Below are positions 10,244-38,569 of a DNA stretch of 64,000 bases, one piece after another. The position numbers and the translations under genes are program-made. The DNA is from an uncultured Christensenella sp. GTDB lineage: Bacteria; Bacillota; Clostridia; Christensenellales; UBA1242. Under the pieces are notes generated by a model. The model saw only the letters and a list, made by a program, of their open reading frames with translations. It was not told the DNA's origin and did not search any database. How positions within the stretch are numbered: the stretch's first letter is position 1; every line of letters begins with the position of its first letter. The stretch spans positions 880-64,879 of the forward strand of contig CASEHF010000001.1 in NCBI GenBank assembly GCA_949287685.1, written 5' to 3'.

Positions 10244-10244
10244 A

Positions 10245-10565: not shown

Positions 10566-10728
10566 ATGTGCGGGTGAGGTACTATGCAATGAAAAAGTCG
10601 AATTTTGCATTAAATTTAGTAAAAAAACCGTAAATTTATGCGAAAAATGCGCGCGAAATCTATTTCAACAACTTGGTACACATTTAGTCCCAAAGTCGAT
10701 TAAAAACAAATTTAATTACAAGGAGTAA
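10534..10728 (+). CDS. small Cys-rich (zinc-ribbon-like) phage protein
   Basis: An AGGAGC RBS precedes the ATG. Cys pairs occur at CAGEVLC and CEKC. The gene overlaps the upstream ORF and ends 3 nt before the portal gene. Confidence 0.45.
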   Translation: MEIQKANRKYKCAGEVLCNEKVEFCIKFSKKTVNLCEKCARNLFQQLGTHLVPKSIKNKFNYKE

Positions 10729-10731
10729 AAA

Positions 10732-12675
10732 ATGCAAAATAAAACAAAGAACACAACGAAGTCAAAAGACACTCGAGAGCGCGAATTAGTAAGCGAGATT
10801 CGCGAGGATTTTGAGCGTAGGCGCGAGGAGCGGAGACCCTTTGATGCGCAGTGGCAACTCAATATGAATTTCGTAATGGGTAACCAGTATTGCGGAATCA
10901 ATGCAAACGATACGCTTGATGATTTTGATAAGCAGTATTTTTGGCAAGAGCGCGAAGTGTATAATCACATCGCACCGATTGTCGAGATACGACTATCCAA
11001 ACTCGCTAAAGTTCGCCCCACTATGACAGTGTTGCCTGCTAGTGGCGATGAGGATGATATCAGCAATGCTCATGTTTGCAAAAACATTCTTCAATCGGTC
11101 ACCAGCAAACTCGAATTAAGTGAAAAAATAGCACAAGCCACTTATTGGAGCGAAATCTGTGGCACAGCGTTCTATAAAATTGTTTGGAATGACAGCGCGG
11201 GTGCTTTGCTCGGAATGACAACGGTTGGTGAGCGTATATATGAGGGCGATGTGGATATTGTCGTATGTTCGCCTTTCGAAATTTACCCCGACAGCAATTC
11301 GTGCGAGGATTTGGAAAGTTGCCGTAGCCTCATTCACGCCCGCGCCTATAATGTCGATGCCATTAAAAAGCATTGGGGAGTTGAGGTGAAAGGTGAGGAT
11401 ATCGATACCTATAATCTCGCCAATTCGCAAGTGGCAGGCGGGCTTGGGTATGTGACCCGCTCCGCAAAAATTGCGAAAACGACCAAGCACAATCAGGCTA
11501 TGGTCATAGAGCGCTATGAAATGCCAAATGATGAGTACCCCGATGGTAGGCTGGTGATAATTGCTGGCGACAAACTGCTTTACGATGGCATTTTGCCTTA
11601 TCAAAATTTGCACAACGGTGCTCGCGGTTTTCCCTTTATTCGACAAATTAGTATTACACAGCCCTCACTTTTTTGGGGTACGACAGTAGTAGAGCGCACG
11701 ATTCCTGTCCAACGCGCGTACAACGCTGTAAAAAATCGCAAGCACGAGTTTATAAATCGCCTCAGTATGGGGATTATGAGCGTAGAGGATGGTTCAGTCG
11801 ATGTCGAAAATCTCGAGGAGGAGGGGTTAAGTCCAGGCAAGATTTTAATTTATCGCCAGGGTGCGCGCGCTCCTCAAATTTTGCAAACACAAAGTTTGCC
11901 AGTTGATTTTCGCGATGAGGAGGAGAGGTTGCTAAACGAATTCTATACCGTGAGTGGCACTAGCGACTTGTTTAGTTCTAATACCTCGGCACTCGCGAGT
12001 CTCAGTGGGGTTGCGCTTCAGTTAATACTTGAGCAAGAGGATATGCGAATTTCGACAAGCGGCGAGTTCATAAAAAATGCAATAAAGGAAATCGGTCGCC
12101 ATATTTTGCGTATGTACAAGCAGTTTGCTACCTCTCAGCGTATGAATAAAATCGTGGGCGAAAATGGCAATAGTCGTCTGTTCTATTGGGACAATAGCGC
12201 GATTACTTCGGATGATATCGTTTTTGAGACCGAAACTGAACTCGGAGAAACGGTCGCCCAAAAACGCAGTATGGTATTTGATTTATTACAGGCAGGGTTA
12301 TTGCACGATGAAAATGGCAAATTGTCAAACGCTATGCGACTAAAAATTCTCGAATTACTCGGTTTCGGTATTTGGGAGGAGGCACTCGATAATAACAATT
12401 TGCAAGTCGAAAAAGCAAAACGCGAAAACATTGAGTTTATCGAGGGTAAAAATCCAGAAGTATCCGAGATACACGACCACGATTTGCATATATCGAGCCA
12501 CATAGCCTTTATGTTGAGTGGTGAATTTGACAATTATGCAAAAAATCGCAAAGATTTGCGCGAAAAAATGTTAGCACACATCCGCACACACAAGAAATTT
12601 AAAAAACTTTCGCAAATGGCGGAGTCCGTTTCATTAAGTGCGACACAAAATCAAGACACAGCACAGGAGGCATAG
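10732..12675 (+). CDS. phage portal protein
   Basis: A 647-aa protein encoded between the terminase and the scaffold/capsid genes. The N-terminal RRPFDAQWQLNMNFVMGNQY motif is portal-like. The call rests on size, position and this motif. Confidence 0.8.
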   Translation: MQNKTKNTTKSKDTRERELVSEIREDFERRREERRPFDAQWQLNMNFVMGNQYCGINANDTLDDFDKQYFWQEREVYNHIAPIVEIRLSKLAKVRPTMTVLPASGDEDDISNAHVCKNILQSVTSKLELSEKIAQATYWSEICGTAFYKIVWNDSAGALLGMTTVGERIYEGDVDIVVCSPFEIYPDSNSCEDLESCRSLIHARAYNVDAIKKHWGVEVKGEDIDTYNLANSQVAGGLGYVTRSAKIAKTTKHNQAMVIERYEMPNDEYPDGRLVIIAGDKLLYDGILPYQNLHNGARGFPFIRQISITQPSLFWGTTVVERTIPVQRAYNAVKNRKHEFINRLSMGIMSVEDGSVDVENLEEEGLSPGKILIYRQGARAPQILQTQSLPVDFRDEEERLLNEFYTVSGTSDLFSSNTSALASLSGVALQLILEQEDMRISTSGEFIKNAIKEIGRHILRMYKQFATSQRMNKIVGENGNSRLFYWDNSAITSDDIVFETETELGETVAQKRSMVFDLLQAGLLHDENGKLSNAMRLKILELLGFGIWEEALDNNNLQVEKAKRENIEFIEGKNPEVSEIHDHDLHISSHIAFMLSGEFDNYAKNRKDLREKMLAHIRTHKKFKKLSQMAESVSLSATQNQDTAQEA

Positions 12676-12676
12676 A

Positions 12677-13486
12677 ATGATAGAAAATCTACCATTTAGT
12701 TTACCTGAGTTTAACCTCGAGGAAATAAAAGATGATGGCTCGACTGATTTGGGGACTTTCAAGTCGGTAAAGACTTTAAAGGAGGCATATGACAGCTTGC
12801 GTAGTTGTTTTACAAAAAACGCGATGGAATTGGCAGAAATTAAGAAAAATATGTCTCAAAATGCGGATAATACACAAAATACCGAAAATAACGCCGAACT
12901 ATTCGCAAAACAAGACCAAAACGCCACAAAAGCGCCTCAAAATAACGAAAATTTGAGCAAACAGGCTGATTTAAATGAGATGAGAGCCGAGATTAATGAA
13001 AGCGATGATATTAGCCCCGTACAGTCAGACAAGGCACAGACCCCTGACACTACGATTACTTCGGACAAGGCAACAGCCCCCGAAAAACCGAACTTTTTGG
13101 ATAATGCAGATTGGTCCAAAAAGGCGGAAAAATTTTTTGAAACATACCCGATAGCGCGTGAGCATACAAAGGAACTTGCCGAAGCTTTGGCGAAAGACAA
13201 GAATTTTGTAAATAACGAAAATTCCCTTTTGGCTGCTTGGGTAAAAGTGCTAGAGCAAAATCGGTACAATGTCGAACTAACTGATGATTTTATCGAAAAA
13301 AACATTGTAAATAATCAAAAAATTAAAGATTTGATTATCAAAAACTATTTAAACGATATCAAAACTTTACGGTCTGCACCGCCAGTTATCGCTTCTAGTC
13401 AGGGAGTTTCCGCACAAGGAACGACTCATATTCGCGCAAACGATATGCAAGAAGCGAAAGAATTGGCAAAAAAACTATTTGAATAG
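12677..13486 (+). CDS. putative capsid scaffolding protein
   Basis: The preferred start is the ATG at 12677 (RBS AGGAGGCA), not the track start at 12638, which lies inside the portal gene. The protein is acidic, low-complexity and helical, and is encoded directly before the capsid genes. Confidence 0.55.
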   Translation: MIENLPFSLPEFNLEEIKDDGSTDLGTFKSVKTLKEAYDSLRSCFTKNAMELAEIKKNMSQNADNTQNTENNAELFAKQDQNATKAPQNNENLSKQADLNEMRAEINESDDISPVQSDKAQTPDTTITSDKATAPEKPNFLDNADWSKKAEKFFETYPIAREHTKELAEALAKDKNFVNNENSLLAAWVKVLEQNRYNVELTDDFIEKNIVNNQKIKDLIIKNYLNDIKTLRSAPPVIASSQGVSAQGTTHIRANDMQEAKELAKKLFE

Positions 13487-13496
13487 GAGATGAAGT

Positions 13497-14675
13497 ATGA
13501 TTACATTACAGACTGCACAAAACGCCTTGAAAACTATTTATCTCGAGGCGATTAGCAATCAGTTAAATTCGTGCGTGGACCCTGTGTTTAATATGATTAA
13601 GCAGAGTACCGCCGATGTTTATGGTAGAAATATCGTAAAACTTGTCCCGTTCGGACTAAATGGCGGGATTGGCGCTGGTGATGAAACTGGTGCACTACCC
13701 GCAGGGGCTGACAGCCATTATGTGAATTTTACCACAACATTGAAAAATTTGTATGGAATGATTGAAATTTCGGATAAAGCAATTCGCTCCTCTGCGAACG
13801 ATGAGGGCGCTTTTGTAAATCTGCTGACTGCGGAAATGGATGGACTACTGCAGTCGAGCAAGTTCAACCTTAGTCGTATGTTTTACGGAGATGGAAGTGG
13901 AAATTTAATTAAATCTATCAGCGCTATCGACACAACGAACAAAGCAATGACAGTCGACAACTCGTATGCATTTGCGGAAGGTATGCTGCTTGACTTTTAT
14001 ATGTCCAATGTTCTTGATGCGAATATGAAAGGGGTCGAGGTGCTGAAAGTTGATCACGCTAACAAAAAAGTTTACTTAAGCACTGTGTCCTCGAACTTTA
14101 CCGACACGAATAAGACCAAATACACCGTTTGTGTTCAGGGTAGCAAGGACAAGGAACTCACAGGACTTGGTGCGTTGTTTGATTCTGATGCTACTACACT
14201 CTATGGTATTACTAGGGCAAACTATGCGTACTTGATGCCGTTGACATATACAAAACAAAGTACTGACACTTTTAATGAAAAGTTTATCCAAAAATATATA
14301 GATTTGCTCGAGGTTAGGTCTGGTTATCAGCCTGACATTATCGTTTGTGGTGGTGACACGCTTTACGACATTATGGATATGTTGGCAGGTTATGCGACTA
14401 ATATCGATGCGGCAAACCTGACAGGCGGATACACCAGCGTATCATTCTGTGGGGTGCCTTTGATTAGAAATCGCTTTGACTCTGCTGACAACTTAATGAT
14501 GCTAAATACGACACAGTTTACCTTGCATCAACTTTGCGATTGGGAGTGGCTCACTCACAACGATGGCTCAATTTTAAAACAAAAAGAAGGTTATGCGACA
14601 TATTCCGCAACTCTAGTAAAATACGCGGATTTAATATGTGACAGACCAAATGCGCAAGCATTAATTACATTATAG
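13497..14675 (+). CDS. phage major capsid protein, paralog 1
   Basis: A 392-aa protein with a GGAG RBS, encoded right after the scaffold gene. It is alignable end to end with the next gene. An HK97-type fold is inferred from size and position only. Confidence 0.75.
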   Translation: MITLQTAQNALKTIYLEAISNQLNSCVDPVFNMIKQSTADVYGRNIVKLVPFGLNGGIGAGDETGALPAGADSHYVNFTTTLKNLYGMIEISDKAIRSSANDEGAFVNLLTAEMDGLLQSSKFNLSRMFYGDGSGNLIKSISAIDTTNKAMTVDNSYAFAEGMLLDFYMSNVLDANMKGVEVLKVDHANKKVYLSTVSSNFTDTNKTKYTVCVQGSKDKELTGLGALFDSDATTLYGITRANYAYLMPLTYTKQSTDTFNEKFIQKYIDLLEVRSGYQPDIIVCGGDTLYDIMDMLAGYATNIDAANLTGGYTSVSFCGVPLIRNRFDSADNLMMLNTTQFTLHQLCDWEWLTHNDGSILKQKEGYATYSATLVKYADLICDRPNAQALITL

Positions 14676-14687
14676 GGAGGTTAGAAA

Positions 14688-15854
14688 ATGATATCTTTAA
14701 CTACAGCGGATAGCGCTTTGAAAAATGTTTATCTTGATGTGATTACAAACCAGTTAAACAACAAACTCGACCCTTTTTATGCAAAAATCGATAAAACTAC
14801 TCAAGATGTAGCGGGAAATGAGGTCAAAAAATTGGTAGCTCTAGGCATCAATGGTGGTATCGGGGCAGGTTCTGAAATCGGTTCGCTGCCAACATCGCAT
14901 GAGAATAACTACCTAGCCCTTACCTCCAAACTAAAAAACCTTTATGGCACAATCGAAATCTCGGACAAGGCTTTGCGCGCGAGTCGCAGTGAGGCTGGTG
15001 CGTTTTTGAATTTGCTCAATGCGGAAATGGAGAATTTGATTGAGTCAAGCCGATTTAATTTTAGGCGTATGCTGTATGGTGATGGCTCGGGGTATTTGGG
15101 TAGTGTAAATGATGATGTTGCTGGTAGCAATGTGTACGAGGTGACAGACCCATACCGTTTTGTGGTTGGGATGCGACTTGATGGATATACCGAGGAGGGA
15201 ACTCCACTGGAAACATACCAAAATCAAACCGTACTCGATGTAAACTACGAGGAGTCCACCATAACTCTACCAATAGCGGTCACCGAGGAACTTGAACTTG
15301 AGCCGATTCGCCTTTATTTTGCAGGGTCAAGGGACAAGGAATTTATAGGTTTAGAGGGAGTATGCAATGCCAATATTAAAGAAATTTATGGTATTGACCG
15401 TACAAATATCTCAGCTCTAAATGCTCTAAATGAAAGTTATGGAACATTGACTATAACTGCGCTAATGAAAACATTGGATAATTTAAAACTAAACTCAAAC
15501 TCTACTAGCGACTTTATTATCAGTAGTTATCACTTTAGGCAGAAATTGCAAGAGGTTTTAAAACAAAAAAGTATGAATACAGACATCACAATGCTGGAGG
15601 GGGGATTTAGGTCGATTACTTTCAATGGTATGCCTGTTTATACTGTACAATTTGTAGAAGATGGATGTGCTTACATACTTGATTCCTCTGTTTGGCATAT
15701 GCACCAGCTCTGTGACTGGACTTGGTTAACCAACAACAAGGGCGAAGTGCTACACCAGCGTGAGGGATATCCTACACATGTTGCGACTTTGGTTAAATAC
15801 TGTGATTTAATTTGCAATCGCCCAAACACAATTGCTAAGGTAAAATCAATTTAA
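14688..15854 (+). CDS. phage major capsid protein, paralog 2 (possible vertex/penton specialist)
   Basis: A 388-aa protein with a GGGAGG RBS. It shares blocks with paralog 1: L/INGGIGAG, LKNLYG.IEISDKA.R.S, M.YGDGSG, HQLCDW.WLT.N.G and ATLVKY.DLIC.RPN. Confidence 0.75.
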   Translation: MISLTTADSALKNVYLDVITNQLNNKLDPFYAKIDKTTQDVAGNEVKKLVALGINGGIGAGSEIGSLPTSHENNYLALTSKLKNLYGTIEISDKALRASRSEAGAFLNLLNAEMENLIESSRFNFRRMLYGDGSGYLGSVNDDVAGSNVYEVTDPYRFVVGMRLDGYTEEGTPLETYQNQTVLDVNYEESTITLPIAVTEELELEPIRLYFAGSRDKEFIGLEGVCNANIKEIYGIDRTNISALNALNESYGTLTITALMKTLDNLKLNSNSTSDFIISSYHFRQKLQEVLKQKSMNTDITMLEGGFRSITFNGMPVYTVQFVEDGCAYILDSSVWHMHQLCDWTWLTNNKGEVLHQREGYPTHVATLVKYCDLICNRPNTIAKVKSI

Positions 15855-15855
15855 A

Positions 15856-16236
15856 ATGGCTTTAATTAGCATAAAAAATGATGTTTTTAACATTTGCGAG
15901 CGTATAAAGCGCATAAATCCGCATTATTTTGTAGTGTACAATACAGACAGACATCAATACGAAGTGCATAATTCTAAACAATTTGCTAATACATTCTGCA
16001 TTTCTTGCGAAAATGGGTTAAATTATAGTGTTATTTCAAAATTAAGAAAGACAAAAATCGAAAATATAGACAAAATTGTGAAAGAAATAGATGAAATTAA
16101 CGAAAAAATTGAAAAAAACACAAAAAAAGAGATAATGGATGTCGCAAGTGTAAAAGCACAAGAAATGTTTAATTACGCCAAAACTAAAATTGATGATTGC
16201 AATTTTGATGATAGTTATATAACTAAATGGGTTTAA
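15856..16236 (+). CDS. phage hypothetical protein (Lys/Glu-rich C-terminal half)
   Basis: Starts 1 nt after the capsid gene stop and fits the operon packing. No family recognised. Confidence 0.55.
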   Translation: MALISIKNDVFNICERIKRINPHYFVVYNTDRHQYEVHNSKQFANTFCISCENGLNYSVISKLRKTKIENIDKIVKEIDEINEKIEKNTKKEIMDVASVKAQEMFNYAKTKIDDCNFDDSYITKWV

Positions 16237-16247
16237 AAGGAGGAAAT

Positions 16248-16817
16248 ATGACAGCAAAAGATGTTATAAAGCATTCGGTAATGTACTTAGGCGAGGGAAA
16301 TCTTGCTTCGACTACCTCGTTAGGTGGCACGGAAGTGCCCGATGACCAGCAAACCGAAAAACTAAATATTTTGCTAACTTGCGTAAATGATGTTGTAGAA
16401 ACACTTGCTTTAATGTATTTTCCCTTAAAATATGAGGAAAAAGTGCAAAATGATACTGGTTTTGTTAGTTTTTCCGAATTAAGCAAAGATTTAGTGGATT
16501 TATTAAAAGTCGTTGATAAATACGGCTATGAATTAGGTTTTAATGCATTTCCTACATATTTCGAGGCGCCAAAAGGCGAGATTACCGTTGTTTATAACTA
16601 TGCGCCGACTGAAGTCGATGATTTTACGGATACTTTGGAGATTGCCGAGGGAAATGTTACCTTGAGGATGCTGAGCATTGGCGTTGTGAGCAGGTACTAC
16701 TTGATTACAGGTATGTACAACGATGCTGAAGCGTGGCAAAATATGTTTGAACGCGCAGTTTTAGTAGCAAAACGCCCAAAAACTGCTAAATTTATTAAAA
16801 AAAGAAGGTGGTTTTAG
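16248..16817 (+). CDS. phage hypothetical protein, possible head-tail adaptor
   Basis: The preferred start is 16248 (RBS AAGGAGGAAATATG), whereas the track start is 16227. The adaptor role is suggested only by position after the capsid genes. Confidence 0.5.
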   Translation: MTAKDVIKHSVMYLGEGNLASTTSLGGTEVPDDQQTEKLNILLTCVNDVVETLALMYFPLKYEEKVQNDTGFVSFSELSKDLVDLLKVVDKYGYELGFNAFPTYFEAPKGEITVVYNYAPTEVDDFTDTLEIAEGNVTLRMLSIGVVSRYYLITGMYNDAEAWQNMFERAVLVAKRPKTAKFIKKRRWF

Positions 16818-18298
16818 TGTTTTATACTGAAAATGTACCCAATATTAGCAAAAATAACTTGCGCGTAAAGTTTAGCGACTTCTCAAAAGGAATCAACACA
16901 AATATTGCCGAAAACATTTTACCTCTAAATTACGCAGTTAATGCGTTTAATTACGATTTTAATTCTGGCGCACTGACTCCGGGGCTTGGATTAAAAGAGT
17001 TGGAGATTTATAACGGTAGTACTACTAAAAATATGTTTATGCCAGAAGTCGGTGTTAGCATTAAAAAATTTTGGCATTTTAGGCGCTACGACCACAGTTT
17101 AAATCAATTTTCACCGCTTTTAATGGTGTATACTGATAATGAAAAAATATTTATGGGCAGATTAATGACTCAAGACTATTTTTTCTACGACACAGGTAAG
17201 ACCTTTGATACCGAGCCTACAGGCATAAATTATAGAATCGATGACACTGATTGCTTTTTATGTTGTTCCCCTAATGAAATTACTGTATTTAACGGAACTA
17301 CTACTCCCACGACTTATTCAAATAATGTCCCTGATATAACTTCGGTTGCGCTGCACGCAGGTAGATTGTTTGCGACTACAGGCGGCGACCAGAGTCAACT
17401 TTGGTTTAGTGATGACTTAAATCCGACCAACTGGAATGTTAGCGCTTTCGAGGGTGGTTACATCGAACTCACTGATGAGCGCGGTACGCTAAAAAAGGTC
17501 ATTGAGTCAAATAATTATCTCTATGTGATTAGAGAGTATGGCATCACGCGTGTATCGGGTTGGGGGCTACAGGATGAGTTCACCGTGACCAACTTGTATC
17601 TTACGACTGGCAAACTTTATCACAATAGTGCCGTGTTGTGTGGTGGTGTAATTATGATGCTTTGTCGTGATGGAATTTATTATTTTACTGGCTCCACTAT
17701 GCAAAAACTTGAGTTAGGACTAGATAAATACTTCAAAAATGTCGACAATAGCAACGCAATTGGTGCTTTTTTAGATGGAAAGTACTATTTGGCGTGTCGA
17801 CTGAATTTTGATGATGCTACAATCGGCTGCGAAAGTGCGACTTATGTAAATAATGCCTTAATAGAGTATGATTTGGAAAACGGTAACATAAACATTTTGA
17901 GAGGCGTTGATATTTGTAGTTTGACACCTTTCCAAACTGAATGGTTTAGTAAATTGGTGGTTTGCCGCCGCGATGCTGAGACCAATAAATTGAGTGAGGT
18001 AACGCATGATGGCTTGATTTATAACACGCCAACGAAAAAAGTCTGGACCAGCGCAATGACTGATATCGGTTACCCTGCATATAAAAAAGCTATTCGCTCG
18101 TTATGTTTAAATACTACAAAAGATGTGGAAATAACTATCAAAACGGATGAAAAAGCGTATAATTTTAATGTAAAAGGCTCAAATTCTCCCGTAAAAGTAC
18201 CAATAAATCTAATCACTAAAAAATTTAGTGTTACTTTTTCGAGTAATACTGCTGATTGCGAAATATCAAATCCCGAACTTGAGGTGTCGCTATGTTAA
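16808..18298 (+). CDS. phage structural protein of unknown role (496 aa, beta-rich)
   Basis: GTG start overlapping the previous gene. This is the largest ORF of the distal part and a candidate tail/nozzle or receptor-binding component. No family recognised. Confidence 0.6.
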   Translation: MVLVFYTENVPNISKNNLRVKFSDFSKGINTNIAENILPLNYAVNAFNYDFNSGALTPGLGLKELEIYNGSTTKNMFMPEVGVSIKKFWHFRRYDHSLNQFSPLLMVYTDNEKIFMGRLMTQDYFFYDTGKTFDTEPTGINYRIDDTDCFLCCSPNEITVFNGTTTPTTYSNNVPDITSVALHAGRLFATTGGDQSQLWFSDDLNPTNWNVSAFEGGYIELTDERGTLKKVIESNNYLYVIREYGITRVSGWGLQDEFTVTNLYLTTGKLYHNSAVLCGGVIMMLCRDGIYYFTGSTMQKLELGLDKYFKNVDNSNAIGAFLDGKYYLACRLNFDDATIGCESATYVNNALIEYDLENGNINILRGVDICSLTPFQTEWFSKLVVCRRDAETNKLSEVTHDGLIYNTPTKKVWTSAMTDIGYPAYKKAIRSLCLNTTKDVEITIKTDEKAYNFNVKGSNSPVKVPINLITKKFSVTFSSNTADCEISNPELEVSLC

Positions 18299-18771
18299 GT
18301 AAATTCGTAACACCACAAGACAATTTGGCAAAAATCGAGGATTTGGAGCAGAAAGTAGATTATTTGCTTGAGCAATTAAAAATTCTCAAAAATACCGATA
18401 TAAAGCCTAATTTCATCACTTCATATTCGGCGACAACTCATACAATAAGCGCCGAAGGAATTGGTACAGGCTCGATACCTTTGTTGAATTTTAGTGGTCA
18501 GGCTAATAAAAAAGGCTTTGGGATAGTGAATGCAATCTTTAATACGGACACGGCGCATAATATAATGGCATCATTGAGTTTTTCAAGTAATTTACAACTG
18601 AATACTTTTAATTTACCCGCCGGCAATACTCCTATAACACTCTGTATTGAAATTAATTTAGGGGAAAACTTGATTGGAAATTTAAACATACTAGCAGGTG
18701 AGGCGGATGTAAAGGTATCAAACATCAGCGTTTTAGTGATAGGGGAAAATGTCATAGAAACATCTACATAA
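18292..18771 (+). CDS. phage hypothetical protein (N-terminal coiled-coil, beta-rich C-terminus)
   Basis: Overlaps the upstream stop by 7 nt. The IEDLEQKVDYLLEQLKILK helix is followed by a beta-rich region, which is fiber/spike-like in style only. Confidence 0.5.
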   Translation: MLSKFVTPQDNLAKIEDLEQKVDYLLEQLKILKNTDIKPNFITSYSATTHTISAEGIGTGSIPLLNFSGQANKKGFGIVNAIFNTDTAHNIMASLSFSSNLQLNTFNLPAGNTPITLCIEINLGENLIGNLNILAGEADVKVSNISVLVIGENVIETST

Positions 18772-18935
18772 AAGTTGCAGCAATGTTTATTGTTATTAAA
18801 CTAATGCATAGTACTATAAAAATTGTGTAAAAAAGGTGATAAAAATGCAAAAAATAAATTATACAAGCAAAATTAAAGTAATAAAATTAATTAAAAAGAT
18901 AAAAAAAGAAAAATATTTAAGAAACGGAGGTTTTT

Positions 18936-19925
18936 ATGCAAACGGAAGTTTTAGATGATGAAAAAAGAAAAAATGAAGAGACTGAGAGTAAAATCAGTGA
19001 AGCGCAAAATGTCTCAACTCAAGACAGTTCACAGGTTGGTGATATTGAAAATTCTGGTTCTGTAGCGGTCGGTAATTCTAGCAATGCGCCATTAACTGCT
19101 GGTGTTGACATCGATGCAGTTAAGGACCACTTGCAAGAAATTGAGGATGAGTTTGCTTCGCAATATCCTGTATTTAACGAATCGATTTACGAAGGGCTAG
19201 ATTACAAGAGGGTCGAAATGCCTACGGCTGAAACTATCGAACGAGAGGCACAGAGTGATCTTAGTGGATATAGACAGAGCAATATCGAGAATATACAAAT
19301 TGATTATTTGGCGGATGTCAACTCGTTAAAAAACAAGGAAAATGCGGTGCAGAGCGATTTGGATGCCACTCAAAGCGAACTTGGGGCGGAGCGAGTAACT
19401 GGGCTTGCGGAGCAGCAGGCGCAAAATATTTCACAAGGGATTGAGCGCTCGAGCATAGCGGGCAACCGTGCTGCTGCTTTTAATGCCGCGATTGACAAAG
19501 AACTCGAGGCGGCGCTTAATCAGGCAAACACTGAAATGGCAGAAATTTCCTTGAAGCGTGAAATTGCAGAAAGCGAATTTAGACAAGCATTGGAAAATTT
19601 TGATATTACCTATGCTAACAAGTTGGAAAATCGCATTTCGGAGTTGACAAAAGAGTATTCGAAAAAGCAAGCCGAAGCTGTGGAGTACAACGAACGCATT
19701 CAAAAGCAGCGTGAAAGAGTGTATAACGAGTGGAAGCGCTGGGCTGACACCTATACTTCACAACTAGATTCTCAAAAAGGTATGCAAAAAGCGTACTATG
19801 TCATCGACCAGATCAAGGATATGTCTCGCCGCGATGCTAAGGAATTTTTGAAAGATGGAGACATCGTAAAAGCACTTGGTATTTGGTACAACGCTGTACT
19901 TGACTATGTGGACAGAGTCCTATAA
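18936..19925 (+). CDS. phage hypothetical acidic coiled-coil protein
   Basis: GGAGG RBS. Long helical Q/E/A-rich segments. No family recognised. Confidence 0.55.
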   Translation: MQTEVLDDEKRKNEETESKISEAQNVSTQDSSQVGDIENSGSVAVGNSSNAPLTAGVDIDAVKDHLQEIEDEFASQYPVFNESIYEGLDYKRVEMPTAETIEREAQSDLSGYRQSNIENIQIDYLADVNSLKNKENAVQSDLDATQSELGAERVTGLAEQQAQNISQGIERSSIAGNRAAAFNAAIDKELEAALNQANTEMAEISLKREIAESEFRQALENFDITYANKLENRISELTKEYSKKQAEAVEYNERIQKQRERVYNEWKRWADTYTSQLDSQKGMQKAYYVIDQIKDMSRRDAKEFLKDGDIVKALGIWYNAVLDYVDRVL

Positions 19926-19937
19926 AGAGGTAATATA

Positions 19938-20762
19938 ATGAGTCAAAGCTTAAAAAACAGGCTCAAAAGTTACAGTTTTTGGGTGTCACTAGCAAGTGCG
20001 GTATTGCTGCTTGTCCAAGCAATCGGAAAGCCTCTGGGGCTAGTTATCAATGAGGAGATATATATGTCGATTGTCAACAGTGTGCTTGGGGTGTTTGTCG
20101 TGCTCGGTATCATTTCGCATCCTGCGCAAAATTTACTAAGCAACAAGGACAATCAAAGTGCAACGGTTACGGATAGTACGACTACAGATGGGGCTCTAGA
20201 GGTAAAAACTCAAGATATTGTCGCAAAAAGTGCTAAAAATTCAACGAAAAACGAAGTTTTTTCTCAAAATTTAAATAGTTCAACTACTAATACACGCGTT
20301 TTGAAGGAGGAAAACTCAAGCGGTTTAAGCTTAAATTTAAATGATTTGCAAAGTAGCATTGGGCTGACCGTTAATGAAAATTGCAGCAATGCTGATACAT
20401 ATGGCAATACCAGTATAAACGATGATGTTGCTTTGAGTGACATAAATATTAATAAGGCATACACAAACGATACGAGCACTAGGTCATTGAGTTTGGGCAA
20501 CAACATATTAAATAATAGTAGTAATGGAGAATTTGGTGGCACTAATTACATGAATGGAAGTCCTATTCAAAAAGAGATAGGCAATTCTATTCAAAGTGGT
20601 AAAATAAGTAATTTCGATAATCAAAGTCAAGTAGCAAGTTCGACCGTAAATACACCTCATATAATAAACGGTGTCGAAGTAAAAAATTACTTAAGCGGCG
20701 AGATTAAAAACAGTTCGGGTGGTGTAGAACAGGACAATAAAAGCGATAGTGCAGATAGTTAG
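19938..20762 (+). CDS. holin-like protein (phi LC3-family-like N-terminus) with a long S/N/T-rich C-terminal extension
   Basis: The N-terminus LKNRLKSYSFWVSLASAVLLLVQAIGKPLGLVI...VNSVLGVFVVLGIISHP matches my recollection of phi LC3-type holins (W..R.KNKTFW.ALIPA.LLLVQAV...VVNA.F.VL..LGIV.DP). The remaining roughly 200 aa are low complexity. Confidence 0.6.
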   Translation: MSQSLKNRLKSYSFWVSLASAVLLLVQAIGKPLGLVINEEIYMSIVNSVLGVFVVLGIISHPAQNLLSNKDNQSATVTDSTTTDGALEVKTQDIVAKSAKNSTKNEVFSQNLNSSTTNTRVLKEENSSGLSLNLNDLQSSIGLTVNENCSNADTYGNTSINDDVALSDININKAYTNDTSTRSLSLGNNILNNSSNGEFGGTNYMNGSPIQKEIGNSIQSGKISNFDNQSQVASSTVNTPHIINGVEVKNYLSGEIKNSSGGVEQDNKSDSADS

Positions 20763-21322
20763 GATTATTCTGCTACTGCTAAAACTAATTACCTAATTTG
20801 TATGATTTTTATAGTACTGGGAAGGAGGGTGAAAATGCCCTCTTTCTTTTTTATAAATTTTTTACCATGTGTAAAATTAAATAATTATACTTGTATTTTT
20901 TTTTAAAAATAGATAAAAATCAGCATATTTAATCAAAAATATAGTGCTATGCAATAATCTTTAATATTGCATAGTGCTGTAAATTATAAAATTTTTATCA
21001 AACAAAAATTTTTGCTAACCTCGGGGTTTGGGTATTTAAAGTTTACTAAATATTGCTTGATTTGTAAGTGATTATTTTAATGTTACGAGGCAAATTATTG
21101 TATTATTTTTCGATGACAAATGATGTTTTTAGGGCTTAATTTTTGATCTAAACACTTAATATTTTGTATAGGTGTTTTTAGTAAATATTTTCTAAACCAT
21201 GTGAGTTTGATATTCCCAATCAAGTGTGAGGTCTGTTGTTTTTTGCTGTAAAAAACTGTAAATTTAAAAATAAAAAAAGATTGTTAACCTAATTTATAAA
21301 ATAGGCTACAATCTATTTAATC

Positions 21323-23131: not shown

Positions 23132-23138
23132 AAAATTG

Positions 23139-23165
23139 GATGCGATACCCGCATCTTTTTGTTTT
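23139..23165 (+). terminator. rho-independent terminator
   Basis: Stem GATGCG / CGCATC with a 5-nt loop, then TTTTTGTTTTT. Confidence 0.55.
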
Positions 23166-23280
23166 TATTCATTATACGAAGTATATCATCATAAAACATT
23201 CTTGGGTTAGTACGAGGGTAACATATCAAAAGTGTACCATTATACACTTCAACTATACCGCAGGATTTGTAGTAAAGTCA

Positions 23281-23697
23281 AGCGGAATAGATTCTTCGTC
23301 TCAGGCTCTGTAAGCAGGAAGGCATTCTGAACCCGCCCCGCGTAAGCCCTTTGTAACTCAGCGTAAAGTGAAAGGTACCATTAGGAACACTTAGTAATAC
23401 GCTGCTCGAAGGATCTATTCCTCTTAAAAATCACCAAACTAACTGCAAACAACTATTCAAAGTGCGTAGTCTTATTTAATATGTATGTATTGCGTGTGCG
23501 GCTACGCACCGAAGGATCTATTCCGCTTAAAAAATCCTTGGGTTACAACTAAAAAAATAAGAGGATGATGCTGGGCTGGCGCGAGAGTATGCTTTTCTAA
23601 TTGTAATAAACACTTGCGCGCCAGACTTCCCGCAAGCGGGAAGGCATCCTGAGCGCTCCCTGCGTTAGCCCTTAGACGAAGGATCTATTCCGCTTAA
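23281..23697. repeat. mosaic intergenic repeat cluster R2 (inverted Y, then Z, W, P, A and Y modules)
   Basis: Starts with AAGCGGAATAGATTCTTCGTCTCAGG and ends with AGACGAAGGATCTATTCCGCTTAA, so the ends are inverted. Three forward copies of GAAGGATCTATTCC(G/T)CTTAA lie at 23408, 23511 and 23678. Confidence 0.85.
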
Positions 23698-24863: not shown

Positions 24864-24915
24864 CAGCAGTGCGTAGTCGGTGCGTAGGCGTACCAAAGGA
24901 TCTATTCTGCTTTAA
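24864..24915 (+). repeat. single degenerate W-type repeat unit (cluster R3)
   Basis: CAGCAGTGCGTAGTCGGTGCGTAGGCGTACCAAAGGATCTATTCTGCTTTAA, lying between convergent genes and ending 1 nt before the ylbJ stop. Confidence 0.6.
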
Positions 24916-25909: not shown

Positions 25910-25966
25910 AGTTTATTTTATTACGCGCGCGCGACAATTATAACGAGTATAACAAAAAGCACGGTA

Positions 25967-26045
25967 AGTGGAATAGAGTACATGACTGGCGCTGAAACGC
26001 TTAGCAACGATTAAGAGTGTTTACATGCGCGCCAGCCCAGTGTCC
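25967..26045 (-). repeat. degenerate reverse-oriented A-type repeat unit (cluster R4)
   Basis: The reverse complement reads GGGCTGGCGCGCATGTAAACACTCTTAATCG..CAGCGCCAGTCATGTACTCTATTCCACTT, which resembles module A plus the terminal motif. Confidence 0.45.
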
Positions 26046-26248
26046 ACTTAAAAACACTCTGCGGGTCGATATTTAGGATAACCTCTCTTTTCATATAGAT
26101 ATTCTATATTCTTTACAACATTTGCCAAAAAGTTAAAAAATTATCCAAAAAAGGCTAAAAAGATTTGCAAAAAATAATTAAAATTGCTAAAATTAACTTG
26201 TTCAAAATATTGCTAATCGAATTTAATAACATAACAAGCGAGGTTTTT

Positions 26249-28261
26249 ATGAAAAAAATTTCAAAAGGAAAAACAGGACTACTGATTGCTTGCTTAGGCG
26301 TTTTTGCTTTGGCGATGATTTTGCCTGCATTTTTGTTTAGTTCTAGAGCGGCAGTCGATGCCTTTACGAGCGTGAGTAGTTCAAACGCAGTCGAGGTCGG
26401 TCAACTGTGGGACAGCACAAACAAGACCTTTGAAATAGGCACTATGAGGACACTGCTTAGTTACATATCGACCGATGGCACTCTCGAGAGAATCAACACT
26501 AATAACCAAAATGCCGAAAATATTCGCGGTTACACATTTGGCGGTAAAATAAACGGACAAGCAGTGGTTGTTAACCTCGGTGGCTACAAGTGGCAGGTAG
26601 TGTACCTCACAAAAGACAATTATGGTAACCGTATCGCCACCCTCTTAATGACAAATAACGATGGCACTACAACCTACGGTAATAGCAGCTCAAATTATGG
26701 TGGTAGTAGTTTTACTAGTGGTTTTCCTACCAGTATGTATGGTACTAGCCACATTCGAGCAGTTACTCTAAACAATGGTGGGGCATATGTAAATATTACG
26801 AGTAATAGTTCAAACCCCAGTTCTGTAACTAATGCAGGTAGTCCTTCTACTTCACATCAATACGCACTCTATACAGCCCCTTCGTTGGGCTTAACTCAGT
26901 ATTTGGTGCAGCCTAATAATGTATGGTATCAAAAAGAGCCTCAATTGCTCGGCGCTGATAACCCAATAGGCTATACCCTAAACAACGAATCTCTATCTAC
27001 TAATATAACAACTGGCTGGAACAGTGATAACCCCTCACAGTACTCATACCAAACCAAAGCGTACTATACCCAATGGGGCGCAGACTACCTTTGGTTGCCT
27101 AGTATTTCGGAAACTGGTACCAGTGACTCAGATGCAGGGTTATGGGGACTATCATCTACCGAGCGCTCCGCTTCCTCTATTTGGTGGTCCCGTTCCGGTA
27201 ATTACCTTTCTTCGTACTATGTCTACTACCTGAATTCTAGCGGTTCCGGCTATGCTTACAACAGTGTGAACTATAGCTACGGCGTCCGCCCCGCGCTTCA
27301 CTTAAATCTTGACTCTGCCGCGCTCCGCGCGGCTCAAGATGCGGTCTCCACAACCTTGGATGGGAATGTGTCAGTGACCGCCACATACTCAAGTAATGAA
27401 AATGGGGCAGAGGATGTAGTTACTCTAACATTTAGTCCAAAAAACCCGAATGTTTCAAAAATCAGTCTAGCAATTGACTCGAACCCTATAATAATTAGCG
27501 CGAGCGAAGCGAGCGCTCAAATATTTATCAATGCAGACAATAAGTACCAATACAAGTGTTATAATGATGAAAATGGCTCAATCGTGCTAATTATTCGCGC
27601 GATTATGCAAGATATAAATGTCACAGCCACGAGCGTGGGGGTAAATGCCTCCGTTGCGGGCGGTAGCGGCACGATTGAATCATATAGAGAGGGTGATGTA
27701 CTGTATGTGATTGCGCACCCCGCAACAGGACAGTATGTAAACACTATTACAATCGACAATGCGACCATTACACCGACTTATTACAAGGCGCAAATTTACG
27801 GCGCTGGAAATGCCATAAATGTGCGTTATACTGCTATGGATGCCTCGAATTTGTTCGTACTGGAGTTTGAAAAACTGTTTGCTAGCACGACCGTAGTCTT
27901 TAACCTCTCTACGGTGCTGCCTGACTACGAGGTGCCGCCTACTGTTAATGGCGGCGGCGGAGTGGGGATAGTCGGTACAGTGGCGGCTGCGACCTCTGGA
28001 GGCGAGGTGCGTATGGTCGGTAACGACATTGCAAACGGCGCCGACACGGACACGGTTACCTTTATCGCGGTAGCGTATTCGGGGTACCGTTTTGTAGGTT
28101 GGGTCAATGCAAATGATGAGGATGAGAGTTTTGGGAATTCGGACACTATCAGCCTCACAAAAGAGCAGGTAAACGGCAAGGTTATCAAAGCCGTGTTTGA
28201 AAAAACCGATACCGAATACACCACAAATGGCGAGACAAATAACCAAGATGAAATAGTGTAA
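26249..28261 (+). CDS. large secreted/anchored surface protein (DUF6273-like central motif, C-terminal InlB-B-repeat-like modules)
   Basis: The preferred start is 26249 (GAGGT RBS; MKKISKGKTGLLIACLGVFALAMILPAFLF is a signal/anchor), whereas the track start is 26165. The segment WWSRSGN...YGVRPALHLNL resembles DUF6273. The C-terminus ...VAYSGYRFVGWVN...KVIKAVFEK is B-repeat-like. Confidence 0.75.
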   Translation: MKKISKGKTGLLIACLGVFALAMILPAFLFSSRAAVDAFTSVSSSNAVEVGQLWDSTNKTFEIGTMRTLLSYISTDGTLERINTNNQNAENIRGYTFGGKINGQAVVVNLGGYKWQVVYLTKDNYGNRIATLLMTNNDGTTTYGNSSSNYGGSSFTSGFPTSMYGTSHIRAVTLNNGGAYVNITSNSSNPSSVTNAGSPSTSHQYALYTAPSLGLTQYLVQPNNVWYQKEPQLLGADNPIGYTLNNESLSTNITTGWNSDNPSQYSYQTKAYYTQWGADYLWLPSISETGTSDSDAGLWGLSSTERSASSIWWSRSGNYLSSYYVYYLNSSGSGYAYNSVNYSYGVRPALHLNLDSAALRAAQDAVSTTLDGNVSVTATYSSNENGAEDVVTLTFSPKNPNVSKISLAIDSNPIIISASEASAQIFINADNKYQYKCYNDENGSIVLIIRAIMQDINVTATSVGVNASVAGGSGTIESYREGDVLYVIAHPATGQYVNTITIDNATITPTYYKAQIYGAGNAINVRYTAMDASNLFVLEFEKLFASTTVVFNLSTVLPDYEVPPTVNGGGGVGIVGTVAAATSGGEVRMVGNDIANGADTDTVTFIAVAYSGYRFVGWVNANDEDESFGNSDTISLTKEQVNGKVIKAVFEKTDTEYTTNGETNNQDEIV

Positions 28262-28266
28262 ATATA

Positions 28267-28410
28267 AAGAGGAATAGATCCTTCGTCTAAAGGCTCCGTA
28301 AGCAGGGCTCAGGATGACCAGTGCTTTAAAAGTACGGCGTTTACGACTATGCACTACTTATCGGCCGTGCGCCTTCGCACTGTCTACGCGCCGCATCTAT
28401 TCCGCTTTAA
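28267..28410. repeat. mosaic repeat cluster R5 (inverted Y unit plus forward W-like unit)
   Basis: AAGAGGAATAGATCCTTCGTCTAAAGGCTCCGTAAGCAGGGCTCAGGATGAC ... GTGCGCCTTCGCACTGTCTACGCGCCGCATCTATTCCGCTTTAA. It begins 6 nt after the stop at 28261. Confidence 0.75.
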
Positions 28411-28591
28411 TCATTAAATTAGATATATTTAGACAAAATCAACTATAATTTAGATATAAAAAAGCCGAGTTTAGCATTATTAGCCCTCAAAACATTTGCT
28501 AAATCTCGGTTTTTCCTTTATAATATAACTTATCGTAAATATTTCCGCTCACACGCAACTACTTCGCGAGGGCGGAGCGATACTATTCAAC

Positions 28592-29275
28592 TTGGAGGAA
28601 CGGCTCTTGGGTATTCTAAATATATTTTTTTCTAATCTCGATGCGGCGCATATCTTTATACTGCTGGGCGCGTGGCTAATTGCGATTGTGGTGGCGATTG
28701 TGTGCCACGAGTGCGCACATAGTTTTGTAGCGGTGAAAATGGGCGATATGACCCCGAAATACGCGGGGAGGCTTTCGCTCAATCCCGCCAGACACTTCGA
28801 TGCGCTGGGGTTTGTGTTTTTGGTTATTCTAGGATTCGGCTGGGCAAAGCCAGTCCCCATAAACCCTAACAACTTCCGTAATGTAAAAAAAGGCGAGATA
28901 CTCGTGTCCCTTGCGGGAATTGTGACAAACTTTATACTGTGCATTATCTTTACCGTTTGTGCTGCGCTCTGCTTTTTGTACCTCGATAGCAGCGTGCTAT
29001 TCTATTACTTCTTGCAGTATGTTTTCTACTTTTTAGCGGCGACAAACTTGTGTTTTGCGGTGTTTAATCTGCTGCCGCTTTACCCGCTAGATGGCTTCAA
29101 CCTAATTCGTGCTTTCTGCCGCTATGACAACAAATTTATTCAATTTATGTACAAGTGGAGTTTCCTCATTATGCTAGTTTTGTTGATTTCGGGCTTGTTT
29201 GGTTGGATAATTTCATTGTTTACCGATGCTGTAATTGGTGGAATTTTCGGTCTGTTTAACATTAATCTAATTTGA
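28592..29275 (+). CDS. site-2 protease family (M50) membrane metalloprotease
   Basis: The HExxH motif lies in a TM segment (IVCHECAHSFVAVKMGD), followed by NPARHFD and a downstream NLLPLYPLDGF motif. TTG start as in the track. Confidence 0.85.
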   Translation: MEERLLGILNIFFSNLDAAHIFILLGAWLIAIVVAIVCHECAHSFVAVKMGDMTPKYAGRLSLNPARHFDALGFVFLVILGFGWAKPVPINPNNFRNVKKGEILVSLAGIVTNFILCIIFTVCAALCFLYLDSSVLFYYFLQYVFYFLAATNLCFAVFNLLPLYPLDGFNLIRAFCRYDNKFIQFMYKWSFLIMLVLLISGLFGWIISLFTDAVIGGIFGLFNINLI

Positions 29276-29302
29276 ATGCCCTAATATAAGTGGCAAAGAG
29301 TA

Positions 29303-29575
29303 CTGGGCTGGCGCGGTGCGAAGCCGCACACGCAATAAGAAAGTGCAAGTCATACCAACAATAAAATAGTACAAAGCCGTACCTGCAGTACTTTAAAAGT
29401 CTGTCATCCTGAGCGCTCCCCGCGCAAGCCCCTTGACGAAGGATCTATTCCGCTTAAAACATTCTAGACTAACCATAGACAATCATTCAAAGTGCTTAGA
29501 TTATTTAATATGTATCTTATCGGGAGTGCGCCCACGCACCGCCTTCGCACTGCACCTATGCACCGCGCCACTTAA
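29303..29575 (+). repeat. mosaic repeat cluster R6
   Basis: GGGCTGGCGCG.. (start of module A), ..TTTAAAAGTCTGTCATCCTGAGCGCTCCCCGCGCAAGCCCCTTGACGAAGGATCTATTCCGCTTAA (Y), then a W-like ..TATCGGGAGTGCGCCCACGCACCGCCTTCGCACTGCACC.. Confidence 0.8.
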
Positions 29576-35063: not shown

Positions 35064-35139
35064 GCTACTGTGGCTCAGTTGGGAGAGCAGTTGATTCGTA
35101 ATCAACAGGTCGCGGGTTCGAGTCCCGCCAGTAGCTCCA
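35064..35139 (+). tRNA. tRNA-Thr (anticodon CGU), CCA encoded
   Basis: Cloverleaf by hand: acceptor GCTACTG/CAGTAGC, D arm GCTC-AGTTGGG-AGAGC, anticodon stem GTTGA/TCAAC with loop TTCGTAA, T arm GCGGG-TTCGAGT-CCCGC, then TCCA. Confidence 0.9.
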
Positions 35140-35160
35140 ATAAAAGTAATTTATATTCTA

Positions 35161-35313
35161 CCAACTGGCTCAGTTGGCGCGACGCGTTAAGAAAACAGCA
35201 CGGGCGTGCTGTTTTTAGCCAAAGCGGACAAGGCGACTAGCCTTGGCGGGGAGAGCAGTTGATTCGTAATCAACAGGTCGCGGGTTCGAGTCCCGCCAGT
35301 AGCTCCAATAAAA
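35161..35313 (+). pseudogene. decayed partial duplicate of tRNA-Thr (5' part diverged and interrupted; 3' 65 bp identical)
   Basis: 35249-35313 is identical to 35081-35145 (D-arm 3' side through CCA plus AATAAAA). The 5' piece CCAACTGGCTCAGTTGG (35161-35177) is separated from it by about 70 nt containing the terminator. Its acceptor 5' strand cannot pair with CAGTAGC. Confidence 0.6.
35192..35216 (+). terminator. rho-independent terminator after tRNA-Thr
   Basis: 10-bp stem AAAACAGCAC / GTGCTGTTTT with loop GGGC and a T-rich 3' side. Confidence 0.6.

Positions 35314-37054: not shown

Positions 37055-38569
<1,515 letters not shown>

Follow-up and report, generated by a model that had tools for sequence, protein, structure and literature searches.

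Mosaic intergenic hairpin arrays recently spread in an uncultured Clostridia lineage and their likeness to hairpins bracketing GIY-YIG genes

Repeat clusters in the window and their modules

The stretch of DNA analyzed here, hereafter the window, comprises 64,000 nt of an uncultured Christensenella sp. (contig CASEHF010000001.1, positions 880 to 64,879) and represents an ordinary Clostridia-type chromosome of ~40% G+C, which encodes ScpA/ScpB, the sporulation protein YtfJ, a D-Ala-D-Ala carboxypeptidase, 16S rRNA, and the ribosomal protein operon from S10 to L17. Its intergenic regions were found to harbor eight clusters that share a set of short modules (Table 1). These clusters amounted to 2,431 nt in total (3.8% of the window), and the two beginning at 24864 and 25973 were short and degenerate. 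Half of the clusters (4/8) adjoined surface-protein genes of the BspA-type leucine-rich repeat (LRR) or InlB-B-repeat/Flg_new type (909-2747, 26165-28261, and 61821-63419).

An initial annotation, made from the letters alone, had described these clusters as a modular, mosaic, non-coding intergenic family whose units end in a common 20-mer. The 20-mer, GAAGGATCTATTCCGCTTAA, matched the window 14 times at up to three mismatches, with six exact matches and 11 on the + strand, whereas the number expected by chance from 100 dinucleotide-preserving shuffles of the window was 0. A repeat search independently returned D1 (116 nt, five copies), the 20-mer-bearing units D2-D4, the module Z as D5 (three copies), W as D10, and P as D14, together with the inverted arms I2, I9, and I16. 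A blastn-short scan with module consensus sequences, combined with reading of the raw sequence, placed the modules Y, Z, W, P, A, and V at essentially the previously described coordinates and added two more spacers, S and T/U. The family was thus confirmed by the 20-mer counts, the repeat search, and the module map. Its intergenic nature was likewise borne out, as all copies lay outside open reading frames (ORFs) with Pfam support, and no transposase or RAYT (REP-associated tyrosine transposase) gene was found among the window ORFs scanned with Pfam, as had been noted. Meanwhile, the 20-mer proved to be recurrent but not a true unit end, since conservation usually continued beyond it as ..CTTAAAACA...

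Nor was the family confined to the window. An independently assembled ENA contig (L208) was 99.9% identical to window positions 57771-61553, including the whole of cluster 8, and the same family was detected at 11 loci of CALWKF01, the metagenome-assembled genome "uncultured Clostridia bacterium BRZ_PQ__bin18", where three clusters lay directly 3' of paralogous surface-protein genes. Since L208 carries cluster 8 and CALWKF01 carries the family, an assembly artefact was excluded and the repeat family is real. The Rfam search that had been proposed for it, run on the whole window at gathering thresholds, detected only 16S rRNA and tRNA and no match on the repeats, and a search of cluster 7 with E values up to 10 gave nothing beyond a 13-bit match to Whalefall-1. 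The literature searched for the 11-mers and 15-17-mers of the family returned primer coincidences or nothing. The 20-mer was not found in viral contigs, in which the 15-mer GGAAGGCATCCTGAG had 44 matches. As far as these tools show, the family bearing the tail ATTCCGCTTAA and the modules P, A, W, Z, V, and S is undescribed in Rfam and the literature searched. That the initial annotation recognized no described family in the sequence was borne out for the family as such, but not for the flanks of the Y core, which are those of a widespread hairpin that brackets GIY-YIG genes (see below).

The Y unit consists of GTCATCCTGAG, a core of 22-25 nt, CGAAGGATCT, and the conserved 11-nt tail ATTCCGCTTAA. 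The clusters of the window contain 14 Y heads of the CATCCTGAG type, eight of which read GTCAT.. and stand behind an AT-rich leader (..TAAAAGTCT), while the other six read GGCAT.. and are joined directly to hairpin 2 of module A. Z is a Y whose core and CGAAGG are separated by an additional 53-nt stem-loop (CAGCGTA..TACGCTG). Module A is composed of two hairpins, CTGGCGCG..CGCGCCAG and CTTCCCGCAAGCGGGAAG, which were 93% paired across 11 copies and contained four pairs changed on both sides, compared with 1.1 in shuffles (two of 500 shuffles reached four). Because Z is Y plus a stem-loop and A always ends in a Y head, Z and A, previously listed as separate units, are not independent modules. 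W is a small hairpin, GTGCG-N4-CGCAC, occurring in both orientations, and P, S, T/U, and V are AT-rich spacers. The G+C content accordingly rises and falls along the arrays, reaching 54-64% in Y, A, and W and dropping to 26-38% in the spacers.

The joints between modules fell at short shared sequences, in agreement with the earlier suggestion that units recombine at their junctions; at 23311-23325, for example, a truncated inverted Y meets an A-type 3' arm via a shared AAGCAGG. In cluster 7, a block consisting of the 20-mer, P, A, and a Y head (36334-36485) sits between inverted W arms (I16; 36305-36513), which is a permutation beyond simple nesting. Cluster 8 holds a 226-nt tandem duplication (88% identity over 189 nt), and therefore the arrays also grow locally. 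Copies at distant loci were 90-97% identical (D10, D18).

Table 1. Module composition of the eight clusters in the window (+, given strand; -, complementary strand)
Cluster	Feature	Position	Strand	Remarks
1	Whole cluster	563-750	+	Upstream of an 11/12 promoter match (844-872) and a BspA-type LRR gene
1	Degenerate Y head		+	
1	V	590-616	+	
1	A hairpin 1	626-676	+	
1	A hairpin 2	677-696	+	
1	Complete Y	695-750	+	Head GGCATCCTGAG, tail ATTCCTCTTAA
2	Whole cluster	23278-23697		Downstream of terminator 23138-23156
2	Truncated inverted Y	23278-23318	-	Tail 23278-23298; lacks GTCAT head; joined at ~23311-23325 through AAGCAGG to AAGGCATTCTGAA
2	Z	23321-23427	+	Y head GGCATTCTGAA and core, stem-loop 23353-23405 (CAGCGTA..TACGCTG), then CGAAGGATCTATTCCTCTTAA
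2	S	23428-23483	+	AT-rich, 30% G+C
2	W	23484-23530	+	Hairpin GTGCGGCTACGCAC, fused to exact 20-mer 23511-23530
2	P	23531-23564	+	AAAATCCTTGGGTTACAACT..AATAAGAGG; its end TAAGAGG is the conserved A leader
2	A	23565-23644	+	Hairpin 1 pairs 23576-23583/23617-23624 (CTGGCGCG/CGCGCCAG)
2	A hairpin 2	23626-23643	+	CTTCCCGCAAGCGGGAAG
2	Complete Y	23643-23697	+	GGCATCCTGAG, core, GACGAAGGATCT, tail ATTCCGCTTAA; right end
3	Whole cluster	24864-24915	+	S end, W-like hairpin GGTGCGTAGGCGTACC, degenerate 20-mer (3 mismatches)
4	Whole cluster	25973-26043	-	Degenerate A-hairpin-1-like unit bounded by TAAGTGGA / TCCACTTA; upstream of surface-repeat gene 26165-28261
5	Whole cluster	28265-28410		
5	Inverted complete Y	28265-28318	-	4 nt past the stop of gene 26165-28261
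5	W	28359-28380	+	
5	Partial tail	28395-28407	+	
6	Whole cluster	29290-29573		Block bounded by TAAGTGGC..GCCACTTA
6	Inverted W	29314-29337		
6	T	29365-29381		
6	Y	29403-29457	+	
6	S	29458-29516		
6	W	29518-29541	+	
7	Whole cluster	35939-36660		Upstream of terminator-like site 36724-36751 and a 12/12 promoter match before the 16S gene
7	Y head	35939		
7	Inverted W, two copies	35959-35999		
7	Inverted S			
7	Inverted Y	36052-36104		
7	Y	36197-36251		
7	S			
7	W	36307-36334		
7	20-mer	36334-36353		
7	P	36354-36386		
7	A	36396-36466		
7	Y head	36465-36485		
7	Inverted W	36486-36513		
7	T/U			
7	Z	36553-36654		
8	Whole cluster	60821-61368	+	
8	Y	60821-60875	+	
8	P		+	
8	A	60915-60985	+	
8	Y head and V	60986-61037	+	
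8	Y	61047-61101	+	
8	P		+	
8	A	61141-61211	+	
8	Z	61210-61316	+	
8	Degenerate Y remnant	61328-61368	+	

Recent arrival of the family

The homologs of the window ScpA provided a graded series of relatives. In the window, 324 nt lie between the Peptidase_M50 gene and scpA, and this spacer holds cluster 6. The corresponding spacer was only 13 nt and 14 nt in relatives whose ScpA is 83% and 82% identical (L163 and L160, respectively), 9 nt at 76% identity (L157), and 24 nt at 72% identity (L158). In the closest of the five (L162; ScpA 93% identical), ~20 nt separate the M50 stop codon from the scpA start. In addition, no module of the family was present in 16-21 kb of syntenic DNA of L156, L157, L158, and L160. 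Because five relatives have an empty spacer and the syntenic DNA is free of modules, the expansion was recent and the family is confined to a narrow lineage, with cluster 6 having arrived after the split from a close relative. The two closest ScpA relatives, P0121 and P0122 (93% and 90% identity), were encoded on contigs of 927 and 1,023 nt. A second interval also differed: the surface-repeat gene at 26165-28261 and clusters 4 and 5 together fill 2.7 kb between the Gate and Peptidase_M50 genes (25910-28591), an interval of only 630 nt in syntenic L160 (8688-9317), so that one genome has a repeat-gene-repeat block that the other lacks.

The clean insertion of cluster 6, as judged against five relatives, would suit nested miniature inverted-repeat transposable elements (MITEs) moved by a classical DDE transposase (e.g., IS630-like) encoded elsewhere. 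In such a case, the Y tail ..CCKCTTAA and the A leader TTAAGAGG.. would serve as terminal inverted repeats with TA or TTAA as the target duplication, and the likeness of Y to the hairpins of GIY-YIG genes would be either inherited from an ancestor or a coincidence. The leader T(T/A)AAG(A/T)GG was indeed found in all 11 copies of A and is the inverse of the Y tail, and therefore A-Y composites possess inverted termini of 8-9 bp, TTAAGAGGA / TCCTCTTAA, flanked by TA, as exemplified by positions 2135-2277 of contig L016. Similarly, clusters 4 and 6 are bounded by TAAGTGG(A/C)...(T/G)CCACTTA, and the inverted arms I2, I9, and I16 enclose 150-360 nt. However, neither the window nor the CALWKF01 loci examined yielded a transposase, and no convincing target-site duplication was seen at cluster 6 or at the flanks of the inverted hairpin pairs of CALWKF01 described below, which lack a flanking direct repeat. 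Furthermore, the empty site in L162 reads TGA|AAAC, without a TA where cluster 6 sits, conservation passes the supposed terminus, and the permuted module order is unexplained by simple nesting. We consider this explanation unlikely.

The Y core and hairpins that bracket GIY-YIG genes

SsnA, a 94-aa GIY-YIG protein, binds the hairpin repeat of the Neisseria transformation sequence (NTS), CGTCATTCCCGCGMAVGCGGGAATCYRG, a subset of dRS3, and cleaves single-stranded DNA on one strand only, at a site upstream of the hairpin, acting on neither double-stranded DNA nor RNA (Chenal et al., 2025; PMC11893778). The hairpins of the Ssn family were named "Ssn-related motifs" (SRMs) in that study, generalizing the Neisseria NTS/dRS3 as their type example, and are inverted repeats of 20-50 nt that form a hairpin; such motifs occur near 71% of ssnA homologs, most of which were reported in Gram-negative bacteria, and the motif-gene-motif layout was likened to an insertion sequence (PMC11893778). 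The published SRM pattern, HGTCWYN(0-2)YYVSBRHN(0-5)WNVSBRGN(0-2)RNCYNB, recovered the NTS consensus and gave five matches in 963 kb of compared loci.

The core of Y carries the signature GTCAT-CCTGAG ... CGAAGG-ATCT, corresponding to a stem ATCCT/AGGAT followed by a tandem G.A mismatch and a G-C pair. Across 26 copies from two genomes, G1, C3, A4, T5, A42, and T43 were invariant, and the second base was T in 21 copies and G in five A-fused copies. The outer helix (outer six pairs) showed 99.4% standard pairs, and pair 6-41 was CG in 18 copies, UA in six, UG in one, and another combination in one.

A pattern derived from Y, GTCATYCTGAG-N17-22-GACGAAGRATCT, matched more than 120 metagenome contigs with G+C contents of 33-75% among the matches listed. 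These instances were clean hairpins of the form GTCATYCTGAG(GAG)-stem-loop-stem-(CGA)CGAAGRATCT, in which the degenerate Y and R positions were paired as T-A (59), C-G (29), or C-A (1) in 89 unique instances carrying 88 different inner stems, and the uninterrupted inner stem averaged 5.1 bp compared with 0.68 in shuffles (47 instances of the GAG..CGA subtype). Their helix contains tandem G.A mismatches (CUGAG/CGAAG), and the shortest form includes GCGAAGC, which we take to be an unusually stable DNA mini-hairpin. An Rfam search of 18 loci bearing the hairpin found nothing on it. These results provide evidence that the hairpin class is far more widespread than the published pattern suggests.

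The neighbors of this hairpin were compared by all-against-all clustering of the ORFs lying within 250 nt of it in the ~120 metagenome loci listed. The sole ORF family recurring in at least three unrelated contigs was a single-domain GIY-YIG protein of ~95 aa, with 5,828 homologs at E <= 1e-10, and no recurrent transposase was detected. In all four independent homolog contexts examined (L142, L143, L144, and L150), the GIY-YIG gene was bracketed by inverted hairpins with GTCAT facing outward. The downstream hairpin of L143, GTCATCCTGAGCGAAGCGAAGGATC, has flanks GTCATCCTGAG..CGAAGGATC identical to those of Y, and in L142 the hairpin located upstream of the gene, CGTCATTCCGGCATGGATAGCCGGAATCCAG, conforms to the published SRM pattern. 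Y thus shares its flanks with hairpins of GIY-YIG cassettes. Moreover, CALWKF01 was found to contain five gene-less inverted pairs, each composed of Y or Z, a spacer of ~35 nt, and an inverted Y or Z with GTCAT outward, which look like miniature versions of the hairpin-gene-hairpin cassettes.

These neighborhoods also bear on the possibility that the arrays belong to a system of the repetitive extragenic palindrome (REP) type, in which palindromes arranged as bacterial interspersed mosaic elements (BIMEs) are spread by a domesticated Y1 transposase (RAYT, IS200/IS605-like). The mosaic, intergenic arrangement in mixed orientations, the inverted hairpin pairs without target duplications, and a bias toward single-stranded DNA of the lagging-strand template would all suit such a system. 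Nevertheless, no module has a GTAG-type head, the Pfam scan of the window ORFs gave no Y1 transposase, the only recurrent hairpin neighbor in the ~120 unrelated contigs listed was GIY-YIG rather than Y1, and all four GIY-YIG genes examined were bracketed by hairpins. A REP-type origin is therefore, in our estimation, highly improbable.

Related hairpins were also observed elsewhere. Lab288P3bin202, a metagenome-assembled genome of Bacillota, contains hairpin pairs of 73-90 nt (L007 1366-1442 and 4244-4333; L017 148-220), consisting of GTCATCCTGAGCGAAGCGAAGGATCT, a loop, and an inverse copy; two of the loops contain the ATTCCGCTTAA tail, and therefore this tail is common to distinct Bacillota lineages. 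Five metagenome contigs (L046, L048, L065, L096, and L130; G+C ~0.4) carry other mosaic arrays in which the GTCATTCTGAG hairpin is joined to unrelated short modules, namely GGTAGACGG-type heptad runs, GTGAAGCGTAAAGCG runs, and the palindrome TTCCCTCTCCC...GGGTGAGGGGG. Other lineages thus also possess mosaic arrays built around this hairpin class.

Based on its sequence, we treat Y as a probable divergent relative of the Ssn-type hairpins, and several observations weigh against the affiliation. The published SRM pattern matches none of the 14 Y heads in the clusters, and its sole match in the window (28894-28927, -) is unrelated to the repeats. The metagenome set was picked with a pattern derived from Y, so that its flanks match by construction and only the GIY-YIG contexts are independent. 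Within the outer helix of Y, one pair alone varies, and its six UA copies belong mostly to one subfamily and may reflect one or two events. Y alone folded weakly, no better than shuffles, with z ranging from -1.6 to +1.0 under RNA or DNA parameters; its loop of 24 nt (~75 nt in Z) is poorly self-complementary, and the minimum-energy folds of the tested copies lacked the outer ATCCT/AGGAT stem and mostly consisted of small internal hairpins, whereas the minimal form, the widespread form, and the Neisseria NTS folded as expected. A classical transposase would likewise be compatible with the TA-flanked inverted termini of the A-Y composites. As for the enzyme, an NCBIfam search of the hairpin-adjacent GIY-YIG proteins gave no match, and their sole PDB match was weak (1zg2, UPF0213, E = 0.009). 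Finally, searches of the window, ~78 kb of CALWKF01, and L007, L017, and L021 by tblastn and with a profile (best E = 0.43) returned no GIY-YIG gene, a negative of little weight given the small genome fraction covered.

The weak folding of Y is equally pertinent to the idea that the units are structured RNAs (3'-UTR stabilizers, small RNAs, or processing sites) copied for that function. Hairpin 1 of A does show GNRA-like loops (GCAA, GUAA) and G.U pairs on the given strand, one unit of P, A, and a Y head folded with z = -3.05, and cluster 7, lying between a gene and the next terminator-like site, may be transcribed. Yet Rfam gave no match even at E = 10, most Y copies folded no better than shuffles, and the modules did not score as intrinsic terminators, save for one weak 5-bp match. 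Cluster 2 follows a terminator and cluster 1 precedes a promoter, which places them outside the likely transcripts; units occur in both orientations within one cluster, and the published SsnA was inactive on RNA (PMC11893778). An RNA function is accordingly considered very unlikely.

The lack of a visible partner gene is also what would be expected if the arrays were inert fossils of a past burst of hairpin elements, devoid of a partner enzyme and changing by slippage and recombination. Truncation or degeneration is common among the units (clusters 3 and 4, 61328-61368, and the inverted Y at 23278-23318), and the canonical motif's clean stem is no longer present in Y. The fossil explanation is, however, difficult to reconcile with the insertion of cluster 6 after the split from a relative with 93% identical ScpA, with the 90-97% identity of copies at distant loci, and with the strict retention of the invariant flank positions in 26 copies of two genomes, and we regard it as rather doubtful.

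Proposed explanation, related systems, and neighboring features

Among known systems, SRM/NTS (PMC11893778) shares with the present family an oriented layout in which GTCAT, on the 5' side, leads without a break into the stem and ATC flanks it on the 3' side. NTS has GTC-ATTCC..GGAAT-C where Y has GTC-ATCCT..AGGAT-C, and the hairpin class found here has ATCCT/AGGAT or ATTCT/AGAAT. Both are intergenic, clustered, and present in many copies, and relatives of the Y hairpin bracket GIY-YIG genes of ~95 aa, one such hairpin fitting the published pattern. In contrast, Y itself fails that pattern, its stem is broken by a tandem G.A mismatch, it has a longer loop and the conserved tail ATTCCGCTTAA, and no ssn gene (cd10448-type GIY-YIG) was seen for the lineage. 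The host is furthermore a spore-forming Clostridia, whereas Ssn homologs are mostly Gram-negative.

In architecture, the arrays are like the Neisseria intergenic mosaic elements (NIMEs), in which dRS3 repeats flank RS units, the diverse repeat units measuring 50-150 bp, and which were stated not to be seen outside Neisseria (PMC1797815). In both, a short conserved hairpin repeat separates many spacer families in intergenic arrays, the G+C content forms a wave with hairpin peaks and spacer troughs, surface-protein genes adjoin, and array content varies between related genomes. The module map of the window shows just such a short inverted repeat separating diverse repeat units in intergenic DNA. 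Hairpin 2 of A, CTTCCCGCAAGCGGGAAG, resembles dRS3/NTS (ATTCCCGCG.A.GCGGGAAT), although the dRS3 consensus ATTCCCNNNNNNNNGGGAAT itself was unmatched, Y being ATCCT..AGGAT and A hairpin 2 CTTCCC-N6-GGGAAG. Apart from consensus and phylum, the present arrays differ in having several hairpin types (Y, A, W, and Z) and in that hairpin halves were found separated and recombined.

The initial annotation had drawn the comparison with the REP/BIME mosaics of E. coli, and these too are intergenic mosaics of palindromic units and short linker motifs, which lack target duplications and for which a single-strand mechanism is presumed. They differ in that the present family has no REP consensus, GTAG head, or Y1/RAYT gene, the gene family seen in relatives being GIY-YIG. 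On this comparison, the arrays resemble NIMEs more than E. coli BIMEs. Nested MITEs, such as Correia elements and the modular BOX of pneumococcus, are similarly small, structured, modular, non-autonomous, and intergenic, and some composites here have short inverted termini beside TA; they are distinguished by the lack here of a demonstrable target duplication and a parent insertion sequence, and by permutations beyond nesting.

Taking these lines of evidence together, we put it at slightly better than even that the clusters are mosaic, non-autonomous arrays, recently spread in one uncultured Clostridia lineage and organized by an enlarged derivative of the hairpin that brackets GIY-YIG genes. 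The G+C-rich hairpin modules (Y, its long-loop form Z, both A hairpins, and W) alternate with the AT-rich spacers (P, S, T/U, and V). The family may have been seeded by gene-less miniature copies of hairpin-gene-hairpin cassettes, and the arrays would have grown by local duplication and by recombination at short shared hairpin halves. The hairpins would be active in one strand of single-stranded DNA, such as incoming DNA or the lagging-strand template, where an Ssn-like nuclease with its gene at another site in the genome could bind or cleave them. That this genome encodes an Ssn nuclease that acts on the units is something we only infer.

Some support for single-strand action may be drawn from strand usage. 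The + strand carries 12 of the 14 Y heads found in the clusters, the clusters not being independent observations, and its GC skew is positive throughout the window, so that it would be the lagging-strand template. The bias fits single-strand action and is suggestive only; in addition, the hairpin would be strand-specific because of its tandem G.A mismatch. A bolder proposal is that the arrays are both product and substrate of hairpin-directed single-strand cut-and-join by a small GIY-YIG (Ssn-type) nuclease, as a counterpart of the IS200/RAYT-REP relationship. Hairpin halves would then be separated and rejoined, giving permuted units like the 36305-36513 block. We hold this version to be distinctly unlikely. 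If true, cut-and-join arrays around surface-protein genes of a Gram-positive gut bacterium might govern how incoming DNA recombines, a role that has been proposed in Neisseria.

While the general phenomenon was already described in 2025 (PMC11893778), new here are a recently expanded Gram-positive example and hairpin variants missed by the published pattern. The dense, recent expansion in Clostridia widens the likely reach of Ssn-type systems, and the natural variants (long loops, inserted stem-loops, and split halves) would be useful for testing nuclease recognition. At a practical level, the repeats may break short-read assemblies, and they generate spurious ORFs.

Several further features of the window were recorded. 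A hammerhead ribozyme, suggested by CUGAGGAG..CGAAG, was considered and rejected, because GAAA with an in-register stem after it is missing from the core and no ribozyme family of Rfam scored. The 80-nt direct repeat at 43481-43560 and 43882-43961 (74% identity), located within a gene-free stretch of 1.4 kb upstream of the S10 operon, does not belong to the mosaic family, and an Rfam search with E values up to 0.1 gave no match to it. A prophage-like block (2900-21000) encodes a large terminase (8798-10243), a P22-like portal (10732-12675), and a holin (19938-20762), along with many ORFs without a Pfam match; its G+C content is 0.32-0.35 at 2-8 kb. The block is free of repeat modules, and clusters 1 and 2 flank it together with the adjoining LRR gene. 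Since no tRNA or 23S gene was detected in the 1.1 kb after the 16S rRNA gene (region 37055-39640), the rRNA genes appear to be unlinked; the sole match after the 16S gene was a sub-threshold L20-leader at 38707-38794 (23 bits, E = 0.05). Lastly, tRNA-Thr(CGT) lies at 35064-35139, and 168 nt further on its 3' part recurs as a perfect copy of 65 nt (35081-35145 = 35249-35313), a site at which ARAGORN calls a 100-nt "tRNA-Ala" and Rfam gives a score of only 33.6 bits. From its sequence, this partial copy looks like the attachment-site scar of an integrated or excised element.

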